In this document: piece after piece, positions 32,515 to 40,828 of the stretch
Layout: each line of letters begins with the position of its first letter
Numbering within the stretch: the first letter of the stretch is position 1
Origin: a virus
Lineage: Duplodnaviria; Heunggongvirae; Uroviricota; Caudoviricetes
IMG/VR virus record: IMGVR_UViG_3300032046_000003
Span: 128,001 to 178,280 of that record
Strand: one strand, 5' to 3'
Length of the DNA stretch: 50,280 nt
The notes under the pieces: generated by a model
What the model saw: only the letters and a program-made list of their open reading frames with translations
Databases searched by the model: none
Told to the model about the DNA's origin: nothing
Translations under genes and position numbers: made by a program

Positions 32515-32874
32515 ATGGATATAAGAGGCTGGCATAAAGTGAGCTTACTGGATTATCCAGACAAGGTAAGCACATTAATTTTCACTTATGGATGCAATAG
32601 AAGGTGTCCATATTGTGTGTCAAACGACACTAAAATAACTTTAAAAAATGGTAAAACAAAAAGAGCCGATTTAATTAATGTGGGAGATATTTTAAAAACA
32701 CCTTTCGGAAAAACCAAAGTTACGACTTATATAGAAGACATAAAAGAACTTTATGAGATTAAATTTAAAGGTGGTAAAAAAATTAAAGTAGGCAAAAATC
32801 ATTTATTTATGAGTGAAAAGAATTTAAAAAAAGTAAAGAATTTAAAAATAGGGGATATAATTTATGGTGTGTAA
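32515..32874 (+). CDS. nrdG: NrdG activase N-terminal fragment plus split intein N-half
   Basis: SLLDYPDK...GCNRRCPY|CVSNDT...NHLF...LKIGD. Confidence 0.85.
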   Translation: MDIRGWHKVSLLDYPDKVSTLIFTYGCNRRCPYCVSNDTKITLKNGKTKRADLINVGDILKTPFGKTKVTTYIEDIKELYEIKFKGGKKIKVGKNHLFMSEKNLKKVKNLKIGDIIYGV

Positions 32875-33652
32875 TTTAAATAATAGCTTAAGAATGAAAT
32901 TAAACAATCCAATGAAAAATAAATTAATTGTTAAAAAAGTTATGAACACTAAAAAAATAAATCATGTTTATGAAAAAATGGCTAAGAATGCCATAGGAAA
33001 AAAAATGTTAAAAGAATCAATTTTAAAAAGACAGAAAACTTATTATAAGAACAATCAGCATATTAAATCTTCTAATAGAATGAAGATTAATAATCCAATG
33101 TTCAGAGTTAATATTAAACAAAAGATGAAAAATACATTTAAAAATAAAACTTTCAAAGAAAGAGAAATTATTAATAATAAGATTTTAGAAACCAAAAATA
33201 AAACTGGATGCTATAAAAATATGTCCAAAAATATGAAAAAAAATAATCCTATGTTTAATGAAAATACAGTTAAAAAGATGGTCAAAACTATGTATGAGCT
33301 TTGGCCAAATAAAAAAAGTGGATTAGAAAAAAAATATGAGAAAATATTTTATATATTAGATAAAAAAATTGAATTTGTAGGTAATGGTTCAGTTTGGATT
33401 AAAAGACAAAACCCTGATTTTATATTGAGAAGTAAAAAGAAAGTTATTGAAATGACTTCACATTGGTTTTATAGAACTAAAAATAATTATGCCATTAATA
33501 GAATAAAAAAATATAATGAATGTAATTGGAATTGTCTAGTCATTTTCATAGATAAGGATAAATTTAATGATAGCTTAAGATTACAAATACTAGATTATTT
33601 AAAACATGATTATTCAGGGGTAATAGAATATGGCAAACTTGAAAAAATATAA
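32864..33652 (+). mobile_element. free-standing homing endonuclease between the NrdG split-intein halves
   Basis: NNPM repeats, NPDF...KVIEM..HW, WNCLVI. Confidence 0.8.
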
Positions 33653-34334
33653 AATTTTGAGTATAAAAAAAATAGGATATGACAAAGTTATAGATTTTTC
33701 ATGTGAACCAATACCATATTATATATCTAATAATATGATTTCGCATAATTGTCATAATCCAAAATTAGTCTTAGTGAGAAACAAATGGAAATTGACTGAA
33801 AGAATAAAAGAAGACAAAATCATAAATTTCATTAAGAGTAAAAACAAGACTAAAAAATGGGTGGATGCTATTTCCATATGTGGCGGTGAGCCTACGACCC
33901 AATGGAGTTTGATCAAGTTCTGCGAGAAGATAAAAAAAGAATTAGGAATACTTATTAAGGTTGATACAAATGGAACTAACCCCAGAATGCTCAGAAAATT
34001 AATAAGTAGGAAATTGGTTGATTACGTGGCAATGGATGTTAAAGTGGATTTATTCAATAGGCGGAACTATAATCTCAGCATCAAGCTAGTAAAGAAGATG
34101 AAAAATTATGAATTTCGTTTGACAGCGGTTCCAACATTGGTTAAAGACGACAATATAGAACAAATAGCAGAAAAGTTCAAAGGAGCCAAGAGGTTCTATA
34201 TTCAGCAGTTCAACAACAAGGTTAATATGCTGAATAACAAATATAAGGATATAAAGCCTTATAAGCGGGCGACATTGGAAGAATGGTGCAAGAAAATCAA
34301 GAAAAATTTTGATAGATGCGAGGTGCGCGCGTAA
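33630..34334 (+). CDS. nrdG: split intein C-half (40 aa) plus NrdG C-terminal fragment
   Basis: VIDFSC...ISHN|CHNP, ICGGEPT, KVDTNG, DYVAMDVK, YEFRLTAVP. Confidence 0.88.
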   Translation: MANLKKYKILSIKKIGYDKVIDFSCEPIPYYISNNMISHNCHNPKLVLVRNKWKLTERIKEDKIINFIKSKNKTKKWVDAISICGGEPTTQWSLIKFCEKIKKELGILIKVDTNGTNPRMLRKLISRKLVDYVAMDVKVDLFNRRNYNLSIKLVKKMKNYEFRLTAVPTLVKDDNIEQIAEKFKGAKRFYIQQFNNKVNMLNNKYKDIKPYKRATLEEWCKKIKKNFDRCEVRA

Positions 34335-35879: not shown

Positions 35880-36101
35880 ATGGCAGAAATTACATTCCAT
35901 CGTCTTGGTGGAGATGTGTCTAAGTTGAACATAACAGAGGAAATATCTGTTAAGGATGCGTTAGACAGGGCAGGTGTAAAGTATCAAACCGGTGATGACA
36001 TCAGAATCCAAGGCAAATCTGTGGGGCTTGATACGAAGATTACCCCTGATCAAGCGCAGTTTGTCACAGCAGTCCCGAAAGTCAAAGGGGGTATTCACTA
36101 A
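35880..36101 (+). CDS. ubiquitin-like (beta-grasp) protein with GG plus 2-residue extension
   Basis: 73 aa ending PKVKGG-IH; adjacent to E2, JAB, E1. Confidence 0.8.
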   Translation: MAEITFHRLGGDVSKLNITEEISVKDALDRAGVKYQTGDDIRIQGKSVGLDTKITPDQAQFVTAVPKVKGGIH

Positions 36102-36203
36102 AATTTTAGTGTGATAGGGATTAAGGACGGTGAGTCCGCCGATAAAAATTGGGAGCATTGGACATCTTTACCAAAACCTTAGTTCCGTGTAAAGGAGAAA
36201 AAA

Positions 36204-36851
36204 ATGGCTAAAGTAGATGATAAAATAGAAGACAAGAAATTTAAAGAAGAGCAAGAAAGCTATATTCAGACATGTCAAACTAGGCATGACCATAGAATAA
36301 AGACTTGCGATGACAAAGAAAAGCAAATAAGCAAGGAAATAGAGCAGACCAGTAAGCAATTAATGTTGTATGTTAGAGCGTTAAATGATATACAAATCGA
36401 GTCAAACGACCTGAAAAACAACAAAGAGAAGAGCATAGAAAAATATAGAGAGGAATTCAAGGCGCTCAAGTCTATGAAAAATTACAAAAATATTCAAGTT
36501 TCATTTAGCAACAACAGACCGGCGCTGGTAGGCTTTACTAATATGATATATATACAAGATAAAAATCAGTGGTACAAAATAGGTAAGTTTAAAGTTGTTA
36601 TTCAAGATGGTACTATTAATATCGATAATTTGACAAGTAAAAAAGAGGGGTATAATCATCCACATGTTCAAGGAAACGGCACTCCGTGCCTCGGAGACTT
36701 ACAATCAAGTTTGCCCAAGTTAATGGGCAATCACGAATATGCGCTCGTGTTTGACATCATACACAAATATTTATGTAGCTACAATGAAAGAAGTCCGTAT
36801 AAAAAAGTAGAGGCCTGGGAGAGAGTAAGCAAGCCAGGGGATGACGCATAA
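36204..36851 (+). CDS. E2 (UBC-fold) conjugating enzyme with N-terminal coiled coil
   Basis: HPHVQGNGTPCLG matches the E2 HPN/H...C motif; YN..SPY C-terminus. Confidence 0.75.
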   Translation: MAKVDDKIEDKKFKEEQESYIQTCQTRHDHRIKTCDDKEKQISKEIEQTSKQLMLYVRALNDIQIESNDLKNNKEKSIEKYREEFKALKSMKNYKNIQVSFSNNRPALVGFTNMIYIQDKNQWYKIGKFKVVIQDGTINIDNLTSKKEGYNHPHVQGNGTPCLGDLQSSLPKLMGNHEYALVFDIIHKYLCSYNERSPYKKVEAWERVSKPGDDA

Positions 36852-37355
36852 ATGTTAAAATCCAAAATATTTTTAACACCAGAAACATTCAAGAAAATAA
36901 GATTTTTTACCGATCTGGCTGAAGGTGAGGTATCAGGTCTAGGTAAGGCAGAGCGATCGGGTAATGATTTTATTATTACAGATGTCTATTGTCTTAAACA
37001 ATATAACACAGGGGCATCAACTGAATTAGACAGTGAAGACATTGCAAAATTACTGTGTAGACTGTATGAGAAGAAAGAAGATGTTAGCCTGTTGAAATTC
37101 TGGTGGCACTCTCATGCTAATTTTGGTGCATTTTGGAGTGGAACTGATACTCATACTATTAGTGAATTTGCAGCCAGCAACAGCTATTTAATATCGCTCG
37201 TAACAAATAAAAACGGCGACATATTGGCCAGATTAGACATATTTAATCCAATTGAATGCACTTTTGATAATGTAGAATTGGACGTAATGATAGATGCGAA
37301 AGATGCTGCATTAAAAGAAGAGTGCCAGAAAGAATTGGAGCATATTAATGAGTGA
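36852..37355 (+). CDS. JAB/MPN+ metalloprotease (Ubl maturase/deconjugase)
   Basis: GEVSG...WWHSH....WSGTD JAMM motif. Confidence 0.88.
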   Translation: MLKSKIFLTPETFKKIRFFTDLAEGEVSGLGKAERSGNDFIITDVYCLKQYNTGASTELDSEDIAKLLCRLYEKKEDVSLLKFWWHSHANFGAFWSGTDTHTISEFAASNSYLISLVTNKNGDILARLDIFNPIECTFDNVELDVMIDAKDAALKEECQKELEHINE

Positions 37356-38001
37356 ACAAAAATATTGGAGACAGTTAGATATAGTTAATAATGATAAGTT
37401 AAGCATTCCTATAACTATAATAGGTGCAGGGGCCGTCGGTTCATTTGTGTGTTTGACATTAGCAAAAATGGGATGCACTGATATAACAGTATATGATGAT
37501 GACGACATAGACACTCACAATATTTCTAATCAATTTTACAGAGAACAAGATTGCGGTAATTCAAAAGTTGAAAGTTTGAAGGCAATAATAAAAGAGTTCG
37601 ATAATATAGATATTAAGATTGTTTCAAAAAAATACAAAAATCAATCTCTTGAAGGCATAATTATATCTGCTGTTGACAGTATGAACGTAAGAAACGATAT
37701 ATGGAAGAATATCAAATATAATCCCTCCATAAAATTATTCATAGATGGCAGAATGGGCGCCGAAGTTATGAGAATATACACAGTAAAGCCTCATGATAAG
37801 GACGAGATAAAGTTCTTTGAAAAATATTTATATACTGAAAAAGAAGCAGAGGAATTAAAATGCACCGAGAAGAGCATAATATATAATGTTGCTGTTGTCA
37901 GCGGATTAATAACTAATCAAGTTAAGAAATATTGTATGGAGCAAGAATATAACAAAGAATTGATTTTTGATTTAAAGAACTTGTTGTTTATAAAGAATTA
38001 G
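37348..38001 (+). CDS. E1/ThiF-family activating enzyme
   Basis: IIGAGAVGS, YDDDDIDTHNISNQ, SKV, AVDS, DGRMG, candidate catalytic Cys in ELKCTEK. Confidence 0.9.
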   Translation: MSEQKYWRQLDIVNNDKLSIPITIIGAGAVGSFVCLTLAKMGCTDITVYDDDDIDTHNISNQFYREQDCGNSKVESLKAIIKEFDNIDIKIVSKKYKNQSLEGIIISAVDSMNVRNDIWKNIKYNPSIKLFIDGRMGAEVMRIYTVKPHDKDEIKFFEKYLYTEKEAEELKCTEKSIIYNVAVVSGLITNQVKKYCMEQEYNKELIFDLKNLLFIKN

Positions 38002-38030
38002 TTCAAATGAGAAGAAAAATGCATAATAAT
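38001..38030 (+). promoter_or_regulatory. phage promoter, motif A (degenerate)
   Basis: GTTCAA-13 nt-TGCATAATAAT. Confidence 0.5.
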
Positions 38031-38312
38031 ACTGATGTGAACATAATAGACTATACATTGTCCAGGGAACTGGACAAGATTAAAAGGAAGCGTCGATCAG
38101 CTGAAAGAGATTTAGCAGATATTAAATCCAGATATGAATTAGCTTCGGTTGAAGTTGAATATTATAATCATTGTGAAAAAGAAATTCTTGAGAAGTTAGA
38201 TAGTAAATACATAAAAAAAATGAGCGAGCCTGAATTCGAAAGAGTCAGAAGAGCCAAATATAATAGTTCGGTCAAATATAGACGTAATGGAATTACGGAG
38301 GAAAGTATATGA
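38007..38312 (+). CDS. coiled-coil hypothetical protein coupled to the Clp ATPase
   Basis: ATGA overlap with clpC; start uncertain. Confidence 0.5.
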
Positions 38313-40828
38313 TATGTGAAGATTGCCGTCAAAATGAAGCGACATTTGAAGCCATATTTAATATAAATGGCGCCAGGCGCGTTAAAAATATATGTGATGT
38401 ATGCTATAACAAATATCAACTAAGCAACGACGAACAAGTTAAAGAAATTTATAACAAATTAAGCGACGCCACCAAGAAGTCTATTTATTATGCAAGGAGA
38501 GAGGCTAAGAACAGAAGGCATAAATATGTCACCGAATACCATTTATTATACGGAATCGTTCTCGAGCAAGGCAGCACATATAACACTTTAATAAGCATCG
38601 GCGTGAATATTGATAGTTTAAAACAAAAAATAGATTGGGCTTTAACTGCTGTTGCTGATTTAGTTGATAGGGGTAGTCAAGTTGAACCACTTTTATCAGT
38701 TGAAGTAGCCAATACATTAAAAGCCAGTGTCAATATAATAAATAAAATAGAGTTTCCAGAAGTGGAGCCTGAACATATTCTAATAGCAATCTTGGAACAA
38801 AGAGACAGCGAATTGTGTAGAGTGCTGAAACAGCAATTTGGATTAGACATAATTAAGATATTGGAGGAAATAGAGGCTCAATTACCCGGCGATATTGACC
38901 TAGTTAGAAAATATAAAGAAAATGATTCTAAGAAAACAGCATTAGAAAAGTACAGCAGGAATCTGACTAAAATGGCCAAAGCCGATGAACTCGATCCTTG
39001 TATAGGTAGAACCTTAGAAATAGAGAGAATGATACACATATTGTCTAGAAGGACCAAGAACAACCCTGTGCTGGTCGGAGAAGCCGGTGTTGGTAAAACT
39101 GCAATAGTAGAGGGATTGGCAAGAAAAATAGTTGAAGGTGATGTACCTGAAAACATATTAAATAAGCAAGTCTTAGCGCTGGACTTAAACTCGATGGTGG
39201 CGGGAACTAGGTTTAGAGGAGAGTTTGAAGAGAGAATAAAGGCTGTTCTCGATGAGGTAAAATCTCGCTCAAGAGAGGTTATTCTTTTCATAGACGAATT
39301 GCATACGTTGATAGGCGCAGGTTCGGCTCAAGGAAGCATGGACGCCGCCAATATATTGAAACCCATGTTGGCGAGAGGGGAATTACAATGTATAGGAGCA
39401 ACAACTCGAGAAGAATACAGCCAACATATAGAAAATGACAAGGCGCTAGAAAGAAGATTCCAACTTATTGACGTTTCAGAACCTACGGTAGACGAGGCAA
39501 AAGAAATCTTAAAAGGCGTAAAATATAGATATGATAATTTTCACAATGTGAATATAAGCAACGAGGCTATTGACGCGGCCGTTGAAATGTCAACTAAATT
39601 CATAGCCAACAGATTCTTGCCGGATAAAGCAATAGATTTGATGGACGAGGCCAGTGCTAAGGTAAAATTAAGCAAGTTGGAATTACCAGAAGACATTAAA
39701 TCCCTTAAAAAGCAAATAGCGCTAGATAAGAAAAATAAAAAAGATACTGTAAAAGAAGAAAAACTGCTTAATCAGAAACTCGAAAAAAGAACAGAGGACA
39801 ATAGCAAAATAGTTCTAAATGTCGAGAAAAACGACATAGCGCAAGTGGTTAGCAGATGGACTAAAATACCCGCAACTGAACTATTGAAGGAAGAGAAAAC
39901 TAAACTATTGCATTTAGAAGATAAGCTGCACGAGAAAATCATAGGTCAAGACCAGGCAATAAAGGCGCTTTGCAATTCGATACGAAGATCGAGAGTCGGT
40001 ATAAACGACCACAACAAGCCAATAGGCTCTTTCATATTTGCCGGTAAGACCGGAGTGGGTAAAACTTTAGTGGCCAAAACACTAGCCGAATATCTATTTG
40101 ATTCTCCCGAGCACTTTATAAAAATTGACATGTCAGAGTATCAAGAAAAACATACAGTTTCTAGACTAATAGGAGCGCCTCCAGGATATATTGGATTTGA
40201 GCAAGGCGGGCAATTAATAGAACACTTAAGAAGGCACCCTTATTCAGTTATATTGTTAGATGAAATTGAAAAAGCTCATCCAGACATATTTAACGTATTA
40301 TTGCAAGTGACTGAAGACGGGGTAATAACTGATGGCAGAGGAAGAAAAGCCGATTGTAGGAATTCCATCATAATAATGACTTCAAACATAGGGGCGTTAA
40401 AAAAGGACATTATAGGGTTTAATGCAAAGATCGAAACTAAAGACGAATATGAGAGGCTTAGAACAGCTACAGAGAATGCCATGAAGGAGTTTTTTAAGCC
40501 TGAATTCTTGAACAGGATAGACGACGTCATAGTATTCCACAATCTGGAAGAGGACGACATGTATAAGATAGTAGAATTGATGATAAACGACTTGTCTGCA
40601 AGAATGAAAAAGCAAGAGCTCAATATAAAGATAGACCAAGACGTCAAGAAGTTGTTGGTGGAATCTGGATTTGACAAAGAATATGGCGCTAGAAGTTTGA
40701 AGAAATTCATAGTTCGCAGGATAGAAAATCCATTGGCTGAAGAGATGCTTAAGGACAAATTTAAGCCTAATGACACTATATTAATTACTAAAGAAAAGAA
40801 AGAAATAATTTTTGAAGTAGAAAAATGA
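38309..40828 (+). CDS. clpC: ClpC/ClpE-like AAA+ unfoldase
   Basis: N-terminal CEDC...CDVC Zn finger, Clp-N repeats, [32 protein letters not shown] ClpP-docking loop. Confidence 0.92.

Follow-up and report, generated by a model that had tools for sequence, protein, structure and literature searches.

Can a bacterial virus carry its own ubiquitin-like (Ubl) protein-conjugation pathway? The question is raised by four consecutive genes at 35880-38001 of the window, a 50,280-nucleotide stretch of a phage genome, which a sequence-only reading had interpreted as a complete Ubl-E2-JAB-E1 operon. To our knowledge, bacterial Ubl conjugation has so far been characterised only as anti-phage host defence (CBASS, Bil), and archaeal sampylation is E2-less. 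Here the full ubiquitin-style kit of tag, activating enzyme, E2 and trimming protease is carried by the virus itself. As set out below, the block is probably a genuine virus-encoded ubiquitin-like protein-conjugation cascade of an undescribed family.

A four-gene block in a complete phage genome

The source record is a complete 178-kb sediment phage. Its viral origin is borne out by terminal repeats, a CheckV completeness estimate of 100% and a model match for an HK97-type capsid protein; because the capsid model matched, the failure of the Terminase_6N model to find a match in the phage genome is not counted against this origin. An assignment as 'T4-like' was dropped, the best GenBank match of the polymerase (~34%) being annotated as DNA polymerase III alpha, from phages of Firmicutes and others. 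Among sediment metagenomes (DNA), one contains the stretch fully and is probably its source, and two contain part of it, covering fractions of 0.45 and 0.35 of the words sampled; no RNA data set is listed as containing it. Searches of GenBank phages gave no match, either by blastn of the region or by tblastn of the E2.

All four open reading frames lie on the + strand in the order originally read, their residue and codon positions verified, and they are tightly packed: the JAB start abuts the E2 stop, E1 begins within JAB, sharing 8 nt with it, and the downstream genes follow through ATGA overlaps. The sole sizeable gap is the 102-nt spacer between Ubl and E2 (36102..36203, + strand), in which inspection finds a ribosome-binding site, AAGGAG, ahead of the E2 start. 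A strong Shine-Dalgarno sequence stands upstream of the Ubl gene, and, the DNA being AT-rich, a scan for promoters and terminators gave no useful signal. When related loci were located with the family E1 alignment, the E2-JAB-E1 order with an adjacent Ubl was found in most of 48 viral and 22 MAG loci. The block occurs in dozens of uncultured viral contigs as well as in CPR and Melainabacteria MAGs; among the viral contigs its order, Ubl included, is retained at 28-65% E1 identity, and nearly every family member has its E2 gene linked to JAB and E1. With this recurrent order, and with motif residues invariant across 75 E2s, 28 E1s and 5 JABs, the four-gene block is far beyond chance.

The purposes proposed in the sequence-only reading, that the virus tags host proteins or jams host Ubl immunity and that the coiled coil on the E2 selects substrates, are guesses. 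The block could also be anti-phage or superinfection-exclusion cargo that the phage carries, a Bil-like system tagging the structural proteins of competing phages and not serving the phage's own infection. Its neighbours in this large phage, genes of replication and nucleotide metabolism, speak against such cargo, as do the synteny kept over many different viral contigs and the ESM Atlas clusters of the E2, most of which bear a viral label. The idea draws its force from precedent, since every bacterial E1/E2/JAB system characterised so far defends against phages (PMC10097602; 10.1101/2023.09.04.556158; PMC10557695), and from the presence of the module in cellular MAGs too, if patchily (3 of the 81 sampled genomes of the Melainabacteria class). 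The family features of Bil and CBASS are nevertheless missing here: the E2 is HPN-type and matches nothing in PADLOC, Pfam or NCBIfam, and the E1 is single-domain. Carriage as defence cargo is thus unlikely.

Tag, E2, protease and activating enzyme

The first gene (35880..36101, + strand) encodes the presumptive tag, a 73-aa beta-grasp protein of the SAMP2/ThiS/MoaD type. Its family profile (A5) matches Pyrococcus furiosus SAMP2 (5lda_B) over the full length (E 9e-11), and its AF2 model (pLDDT 82.6) has beta-grasp topology, for which Foldseek returns ubiquitin, SUMO2, NEDD8 and SAMP1 as the best matches at a probability of 1.0. The identification as a beta-grasp Ubl therefore stands, even though the protein itself has no match in the Pfam, PADLOC, PHROGs or NCBIfam libraries. 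The family is related to ThiS, MoaD and TtuB, and its longer relatives exceed the Pfam ThiS cut-off. The protein ends in KVKGG-IH, with Gly70-Gly71 encoded at 36087-36092 and a two-residue cap, Ile-His, at 36093-36098. That this is a capped di-Gly needing maturation by the JAB protein is upheld in part. Residues follow the conserved glycine in 40 of the 61 family Ubl-like ORFs, the cap being 1-6 residues long in most relatives, a pattern that would fit maturation by a protease. The Ubl of the closest relative (L002), on the other hand, ends in a bare GG with no cap, so not every member of the family needs trimming.

The second gene (36204..36851, + strand) encodes the 215-aa E2. An 88-residue helix (residues 2-89; about 36207-36470) precedes a UBC core (residues ~90-215) that carries HPHVQGNGTPCLG, with His152-Pro153-His154 encoded at 36657-36665 and Cys162, the predicted catalytic residue, at 36687-36689. 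When the AF2 model (pLDDT 83) was compared with the PDB by Foldseek, the best ranks were nearly all E2/UFC1 (probability up to 0.98, E 7e-3). A wide search with VIA-align, independent of Foldseek, likewise placed UBC E2s on top, with Z 7.4-8.0 over 116-121 residues (model residues 73-208). For this predicted structure the match scores are moderate rather than overwhelming. At the sequence level, family profile A2 aligns with human UbcH7 (E 1.2e-3), hPHv..g.pClG falling on HPNIDEKGQVCL and the family cysteine on Cys86; the 75-sequence profile was needed for this match, the smaller first profile A1 having found no solved relative. The UBC-fold E2 is thus borne out by structure matches and family profile, with Cys162 on the catalytic cysteine of UbcH7, although by these scores (E 1.2e-3 by sequence, E 7e-3 by Foldseek, Z near 8) it is a remote relative of canonical E2s.

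In the 75-sequence alignment, Gly127, Pro153, His154, Cys162 and Gly164 are fully or almost fully conserved, Cys162 strictly; the position of the HPN asparagine is occupied by histidine here and in most members, and by asparagine, giving a literal HPN, in a few. The long helix on which the sequence-only reading had remarked is present but not peculiar to this protein: at ~85 residues it is conserved across the whole E2 family and constitutes its hallmark. E2 paralogues at loci L008, L011 and L016 have N-terminal regions that differ. No Pfam family, UQ_con included, matches the E2 at E <= 0.1, and none matches 10 + 5 of its relatives at E <= 0.01; Prok-E2 models do not recognise it, which places it on a distant branch outside the current models. 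No Bil or Cap2 chain is among the PDB sequence matches of profile A2. Because neither Pfam, PADLOC, PHROGs nor NCBIfam holds a model for it, this family of 2,454 cluster representatives (E <= 1e-3), ~770 of them strong, is invisible to standard annotation.

The third gene (36852..37355, + strand) encodes a JAB/JAMM metalloprotease of 167 aa with a full motif, composed of Glu26 (36927-36929) and HxH-x7-S-xx-D (His86-Ser-His88, Ser96 and Asp99; 37107-37148). Glu26, His86, His88, Ser96 and Asp99 are invariant in the five family JABs (alignment A4). Rpn11/PSMD14 (E 1.8e-8), CSN5 and PfJAMM1 are all matched by the profile, which confirms a JAMM protease; the single sequence stays below the Pfam Prok-JAB cut-off (18.9 vs 25 bits). 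The fourth gene (37348..38001, + strand) encodes a minimal E1 of 217 aa with a single ThiF-type adenylation domain (Pfam ThiF, PF00899; 73 bits vs a cut-off of 28.1, E 2.7e-20), which by sequence is closest, among solved proteins, to UBA1, UBA5, ThiF and MccB. Its adenylation site is intact, with GxGxxG (37423-37440) and the Mg/ATP-binding residues Asp110 (37675-37677) and Arg115 (37690-37692); Cys172 is encoded at 37861-37863. Fourteen residues are invariant in 28 family E1s, among them Gly26/28/31, Asp110, Arg115, Arg135 and Cys172. As the sole invariant cysteine, Cys172 is the candidate catalytic residue, in keeping with the original assignment. Presumably it lies within one residue of the position of UBA5 Cys250, as judged from an HMM alignment of the following helix and the UBA5 sequence. 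Searches by structure, family profile or Pfam model with the four proteins returned beta-grasp, UBC, JAMM/MPN+ and ThiF, as had been expected.

A probable conjugation cascade and its relatives

From these four proteins, their order and their invariant residues, we infer a cascade of five steps. The JAMM protease would first remove the Ile-His cap, exposing the Gly-Gly end of the 73-residue tag. The ThiF-type E1 would then use ATP to adenylate the terminal glycine, and probably hold the tag as a thioester on Cys172, a residue placed roughly where non-canonical E1s such as UBA5 have their catalytic cysteine. The tag would next be handed to Cys162 of the E2, which, in the infected cell, would attach it to lysines of target proteins. 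Finally, the same JAMM protease could reverse the modification. Since no E3 is visible, the conserved N-terminal helix of the E2 probably mediates oligomerisation or target binding. Transfer from E1 to E2 is an assumption of this scheme, because the E1 has neither a separate catalytic-cysteine domain nor a ubiquitin-fold domain for E2 recruitment; a complex predicted from two E1 copies and the UBC domain of the E2 scored 0.03 and carries no weight for or against docking.

The missing docking domain invites the thought that the E2 may be dispensable. In a SAMP-like, E2-independent scheme, the E1 alone would conjugate the Ubl, and the E2-like protein would serve as an adaptor or scaffold without catalytic function. 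The closeness of the Ubl to SAMP2, and an E1 as minimal and ThiF-type as UbaA, would suit such a scheme. It is, however, hard to explain without catalysis why the cysteine and its flanking HP(H/N) and G should be invariant or nearly so in 75 diverse E2s, and the E2 is linked to JAB and E1 almost throughout the family. Conjugation by the E1 alone is therefore very unlikely. Less likely still, indeed extremely so, is a sulfur-carrier pathway, in which the E1 would thiocarboxylate the Ubl for cofactor, tRNA or DNA thiolation, in the manner of ThiS, MoaD or TtuB. Neither an invariant-Cys E2 nor an Rpn11-like isopeptidase has a role there; Pfam finds no rhodanese domain in the E1; and the complete phage genome encodes no ThiG, MoaE or TtuA-type (TtuA/NcsA) gene, so that the absence of thiamine, molybdopterin and tRNA-thiolation partners, first noted for the window, extends to the whole genome. 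What such a pathway can claim is the kinship of the Ubl family with ThiS, MoaD and TtuB, and E1 relatives in GenBank phages that are annotated 'thiamine biosynthesis protein ThiF'. Protein conjugation, the preference of the sequence-only reading over ThiS/MoaD-type sulfur transfer, is supported by this evidence.

Among conjugation systems, the block shares pieces with several and coincides with none. Similar in layout is Bil (BilABCD, types I and II; operon classes 6d/6c of Iyer et al. 2006; PMC1779556; PMC10557695; 10.1101/2023.09.04.556158), which also has separate Ubl, E2, JAB and E1 genes, a Ubl with a conserved and often short-capped C-terminal glycine, and an expected cascade from E1 through E2 to lysine. 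Bil E2s, however, lack the HPN histidine and have a conserved His after the Cys, whereas the phage E2 keeps H-P-(H/N) before it; and BilD, a large E1 built of two domains, has a mobile cysteine domain, in contrast to the 217-residue single domain of the phage (PMC1779556, PMC10557695). None of the PADLOC or NCBIfam models, whatever Bil families these include, matched the E2 or the Ubl, and Bil is a host defence while the present block is encoded by a virus, in a complete phage genome. Type II CBASS Cap2/Cap3 (PMC10097602) offers the likeness of E1 and E2 chemistry with a JAB protease in a prokaryotic conflict system. Cap2 nonetheless fuses an E2 to an E1, uses the CD-NTase itself for conjugation and has no free Ubl, whereas the phage has separate genes and a free Ubl; PADLOC E1-E2 models match the phage E1 weakly, in its Rossmann part only. 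Bub (PMC11601596) is likewise a diverged prokaryotic E1/E2/Ubl pathway, but it works through serine oxyesters, with a peptidase-E1 fusion that lacks a catalytic Cys and with a serine protease, in place of the invariant E1 and E2 cysteines and separate JAMM gene of the phage (PMC11601596).

The archaeal and eukaryotic systems resemble other parts of the block. Sampylation (SAMP1/2, UbaA, HvJAMM1/PfJAMM1) and Thermus TtuB/TtuC have in common with it a small ThiS/MoaD-type Ubl ending in GG, a single-domain ThiF-type E1 and a JAMM protease. They operate without an E2, however, whereas the phage family has an obligate neighbour in its invariant-Cys E2; the phage E1 scores 34.2 bits with the NCBIfam UbaA model, whose cut-off is 450. 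The eukaryote-like E1/E2/RING/Rpn11 operons that Caldiarchaeum and Asgard archaea carry (PMC3082918, PMC5654768), together with canonical eukaryotic E2s and Rpn11, share with the block an HPN-type UBC E2 and a JAMM protease, that of the phage having Rpn11/PSMD14 and an archaeal Rpn11-like protein as its nearest solved relatives. In contrast to them, the phage block has no RING E3, its tag is SAMP/ThiS-like rather than ubiquitin-like in sequence, its E1 is far smaller, and its E2 has the conserved ~85-residue N-terminal helix and usually His in place of the HPN Asn. Lacking the defining features of Bil, CBASS and Bub, the block is read as a new variant of prokaryotic Ubl conjugation. By sequence, its E2 and deubiquitinase are nearer to eukaryotic UBC/Rpn11 types than to the known bacterial defence versions.

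A coupled unfoldase and other viral E1s

Downstream of the E1 lie a small helical ORF of 101 aa (38007..38312, + strand), which has no family match in Pfam, PHROGs or NCBIfam and has a counterpart in the same place in L002 (7172-7441), and a gene for a double AAA+ unfoldase of the ClpC/ClpA type (839 aa; 38309..40828, + strand; Pfam AAA_2, ClpB_D2-small and Clp_N). The latter gene is translationally coupled to the block through an ATGA overlap and is also found in L002. Its product has an N-terminal CxxC..CxxC zinc ribbon, Walker A motifs and an IGF loop (Ile702-Gly-Phe, from 40412), and its NCBIfam ClpB/ClpA scores fall under the equivalog cut-offs. Since the unfoldase has an IGF loop and the phage has no ClpP of its own, docking onto host ClpP is proposed. 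Operon coupling in two related phages, the Rpn11-like protease, and Melainabacteria in which a Clp-type ATPase, there without the IGF loop, directly follows an E1 of a distant branch of the E1 tree, together suggest that the Ubl cascade and the ClpC-type unfoldase may form one virus-encoded tag-and-unfold or tag-and-degrade pathway. The E2 would mark chosen host or phage proteins, the unfoldase on host ClpP would process them, and the Rpn11-like JAMM would remove the tag so that it could be used again. The proposal is tentative and doubtful; if true, it would describe a bacterial-virus analogue of the ubiquitin-proteasome system.

The E2 family is large, mostly viral and undescribed in the catalogues and full-text literature searched, and that literature (full text outside subscription journals) yielded no account of a phage-encoded cassette like this one. 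If active, the cascade would allow phages to rewrite the proteome of the infected cell through covalent tagging, would supply compact E1, E2 and DUB enzymes (217, 215 and 167 residues) for mechanistic work, and would bear on the spread of HPN-type E2s and Rpn11-type proteases before or outside eukaryotes. ThiF-type E1s are likewise encoded by other viruses, namely the Asgard virus Nidhogg (10.1101/2021.07.29.454249) and crAss-like and Flavobacterium FpV4-like phages, the latter two with a JAMM gene directly upstream. Those viruses differ in having no recognisable E2 of this family and no recognisable Ubl, and their E1s are annotated as thiamine biosynthesis genes. A search by hhalign for a diverged E2 upstream of JAB-ThiF in the crAss-like and FpV4-like phages gave weak matches (E 0.016 and 0.29).

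Gene layout and identity of the module proteins

The four genes that the sequence-only reading had grouped as one module were recovered as ORFs at the same coordinates, all on the + strand, and the codon positions of all motif residues in the four proteins agree with the window sequence. They encode a 73-aa Ubl with the C-terminal end KVKGG-IH (35880-36101), a 215-aa E2-like protein carrying HPHVQGNGTPCLG (36204-36851), a 167-aa JAB protein (36852-37355), and a 217-aa ThiF-type protein, the E1 (37348-38001). The JAB start directly abuts the E2 stop, the JAB gene shares its last 8 nt with the start of E1, and 3′ of E1 a 5-nt spacer and then ATGA overlaps lead to a 101-aa ORF, a ClpC-like gene, and the next gene. 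Such packing would be an arrangement for translational coupling. Only the Ubl is set apart, 102 nt from E2, and both of these genes have good ribosome-binding sites.

The weakest claim of the earlier reading, the assignment of 36204-36851 as an E2, was tested by model and Foldseek, by VIA-align, and by a HMMER family profile. The model, built from close homologues (pLDDT 83), comprises one long helix at residues 2-89 followed by a sheet and two more helices. The chains that Foldseek returned from the PDB were nearly all E2 or UFC1, with weak E-values (best 7e-3), while VIA-align, which is independent of Foldseek, placed UBC E2s on top among 48,161 chains (Z 7.4-8.0; 116-121 matched residues spanning model residues 73-208). 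The family is large: in an exhaustive HMMER search, 2,454 cluster representatives fell within E ≤ 1e-3, of which 774 reached ≤ 1e-10. A profile of 75 UBC-domain segments matches human UbcH7 by sequence alone (E 1.2e-3), pairing the family's YxIGxFxI strand with YDKGAFRIEI, its HPH with HPN, and its cysteine with the catalytic Cys86; together with the structural searches, this bears out the E2 identity. Gly127, Pro153, His154, Cys162, and Gly164 are invariant in the 75 sequences, a few family members have a literal HPN, and no Pfam domain was found in 15 members tested. The long helix, which itself has conserved positions, precedes the UBC core in >90% of the 150 top-ranking members; it is thus characteristic of the family and not an accessory. 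A second cysteine in this helix, Cys24 (36273-36275), is kept in ~70% of the top 150. Separately, two related phage loci contain short E2-family ORFs of 162-192 aa (L008 8364-8897, 11231-11719, and 11731-12309; L011 9662-10216) that match the UBC profile at E 5e-9 to 8e-21, lack the HPH...C motif, and adjoin active-type E2 paralogues in the same phages; these may be inactive, UEV-like variants.

The window Ubl had no match in single-sequence family searches. A profile from 18 small ORFs adjoining the module in related loci gives a full-length match to Pyrococcus furiosus SAMP2 (E 9e-11), followed by Haloferax SAMP2, MoaD, and TtuB, with SUMO2 weakly; in Pfam, longer relatives score above the ThiS cut-off. 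The AlphaFold2 model (pLDDT 82.6) shows the beta-grasp topology, and in Foldseek it matches ubiquitin, SUMO, NEDD8, and SAMP1 at probability 1.0, so the predicted fold stands. The proposal that JAB matures a capped di-Gly end fits most of the family. Among 61 distinct family Ubl-like ORFs, 1-6 residues follow the GG in 17, and 23 have G-N or G-A, either as the very end or ahead of 1-3 more residues; five end in a bare GG. The Ubl of L002, the nearest related contig, has a bare GG end. With extensions in many of these ORFs, trimming by the adjacent protease is reasonable to expect across the family, though not universally.

JAB has the make-up of a JAMM protease, as predicted: its complete site (Glu26, His86, His88, Ser96, Asp99) is invariant in five diverse homologues, and the best solved relatives of its profile are Rpn11/PSMD14 (E 1.8e-8), followed by CSN5, an archaeal Rpn11-like protein, and PfJAMM1. 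The E1 matches Pfam ThiF at 73 bits, its nearest solved structures being UBA1, UBA5, ThiF, and MccB, and no rhodanese, cysteine, or ubiquitin-fold domain was found in it. All 28 family E1s compared share the glycine-rich loop, Asp110, Arg115, and Arg135, and Cys172 is their one invariant cysteine, in keeping with the candidate catalytic cysteine proposed earlier. Cys172 directly precedes a helix that HMMER aligns with the UBA5 helix following Cys250; Cys172 is a plausible thioester site.

Probable mode of action and distribution

These proteins could in principle serve sulfur transfer. No ThiG, MoaE, or TtuA-type gene was found in the complete phage genome by searches that, as controls, each matched in 11 to 14 of 14 reference genomes, and sulfur transfer offers no role for an E2 with an invariant cysteine. 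Sulfur transfer is therefore most improbable, and conjugation, the earlier preference, is favored. An E2-independent, SAMP-like use of the tag is very unlikely, as it conflicts with the invariant E2 active-site residues. That the module is a Bil-like defense system carried as cargo is also unlikely: it fails the family features of Bil and CBASS, and it is located among replication genes. Conjugation thus remains the preferred reading: the module is predicted to work like Bil or eukaryotic ubiquitylation, while by family features it is a member of none of Bil, CBASS, Bub, and SAMP. No description of such a phage module was found in the searchable literature, and the class is apparently undescribed. 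Among prokaryotic viruses the nearest precedent is an Asgard virus that has only E1-like genes (10.1101/2021.07.29.454249).

The gene order recurs in many viral contigs. In IMG/VR, an E1-based scan found 48 of them, the longest 190 kb, most with the order E2-JAB-E1 and an adjoining Ubl; L002 (152 kb), the nearest relative, has a gene order identical to the window. In several phages there are two to five E2 paralogues, which differ in their N-terminal regions, and the E2 clusters in ESM Atlas are unnamed and mostly labeled viral. In GenBank phages the E2 had no match, and E1 relatives (~31% identity) occur in cultured Flavobacterium FpV4-like and crAss-like phages, annotated "thiamine biosynthesis" with a JAMM gene directly upstream. 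In FpV4 (KT876724.1; L054 2602-5672) and cr85_1 (MT774390.1; L055 2664-5648), a JAMM protein (HSHN..FFSG.D) precedes ThiF, and no Ubl was recognized at either locus; the protein before the cr85_1 JAMM has HSH...TPCLG and weakly matches the E2 profile (hhalign E 0.016). A scan of cellular genomes, in which each prokaryotic species was represented by a single genome, gave 22 loci, all in MAGs, from CPR groups, Chloroflexota, Omnitrophota, and Melainabacteria. The MAG of locus L071 is labeled Saccharibacteria, and its E1 falls within the Melainabacteria clade with full support, which suggests a binning error or recent transfer.

Clp unfoldases beside the module

The ClpC-like unfoldase (38309-40828, +) lies two genes downstream of E1 and is also kept in L002. 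It has an IGF loop, the kind that docks ClpP; no ClpP was found in the phage genome. A Clp-type ATPase also follows E1 in the chromosomal operon of Melainabacteria MAGs (L066 406-9336, L064 1876-9216, and a further seven loci, with contigs reaching 7 Mb), which runs Ubl, E2, E2, JAB, E1, ATPase. The Ubl there, found in five loci, is 216-293 aa with two or three beta-grasp domains in tandem and the end RPVRGN; the E2s are ~634 and ~286 aa, JAB ~580 aa, E1 229 aa, and the AAA+ ATPase 814-821 aa, without an IGF loop. On the E1 tree a well-supported branch separates the two Clp-linked groups, and Clp linkage must therefore have changed at least twice. This pattern is suggestive of a possible functional link between unfoldase and module. 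In one 7.6-Mb Melainabacteria MAG, eight E2 genes are arranged as four pairs. The N-terminus of the phage ATPase (38309-38420) forms a CxxC...CxxC zinc ribbon weakly resembling Pfam DUF7685 and the N-terminus of McsA (NCBIfam NF053706, E 0.0015), the arginine-kinase activator of the ClpC pathway.

The viral genome and genes with probable insertions

The window is the final 50 kb of an IMG/VR record of 178,280 bp, which carries direct terminal repeats and is 100% complete by CheckV. The whole genome includes a gene for an HK97-type major capsid protein (Pfam model match), the window itself encodes a DNA polymerase, UvsX-like recombinase, exonuclease, NrdD, and RNA ligase, and sediment metagenomes contain near-identical DNA. 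The contig is therefore viral, as the sequence-only reading supposed. A T4-like label was dropped because the polymerase is at best ~34% identical to GenBank phage polymerases, its best-annotated match being labeled DNA polymerase III alpha.

The capsid gene (67306-69021 of the whole genome) matches Pfam in two pieces, at profile positions 10-94 and 96-279, ~850 bp apart and with a TGA within the second, which points to an inserted intron, intein, or endonuclease. An NrdG-like radical-SAM activase (32515-34334), uninterrupted in L002, is broken directly after its CxxxCxxC cluster motif: ORF 32515-32874 holds the N-terminal part (..GCNRRCPYC) and then an intein-like start (CVSNDT..), ORF 32864-33652 contains several copies of an NNPM (NUMOD-like) motif, as is typical of homing endonucleases, and ORF 33630-34334 continues the activase from ..ISHN|CHNPKLV. 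The interruption is probably an intein with an endonuclease and, with each of the three pieces in a different frame, one that would be decayed, split, or affected by assembly errors.
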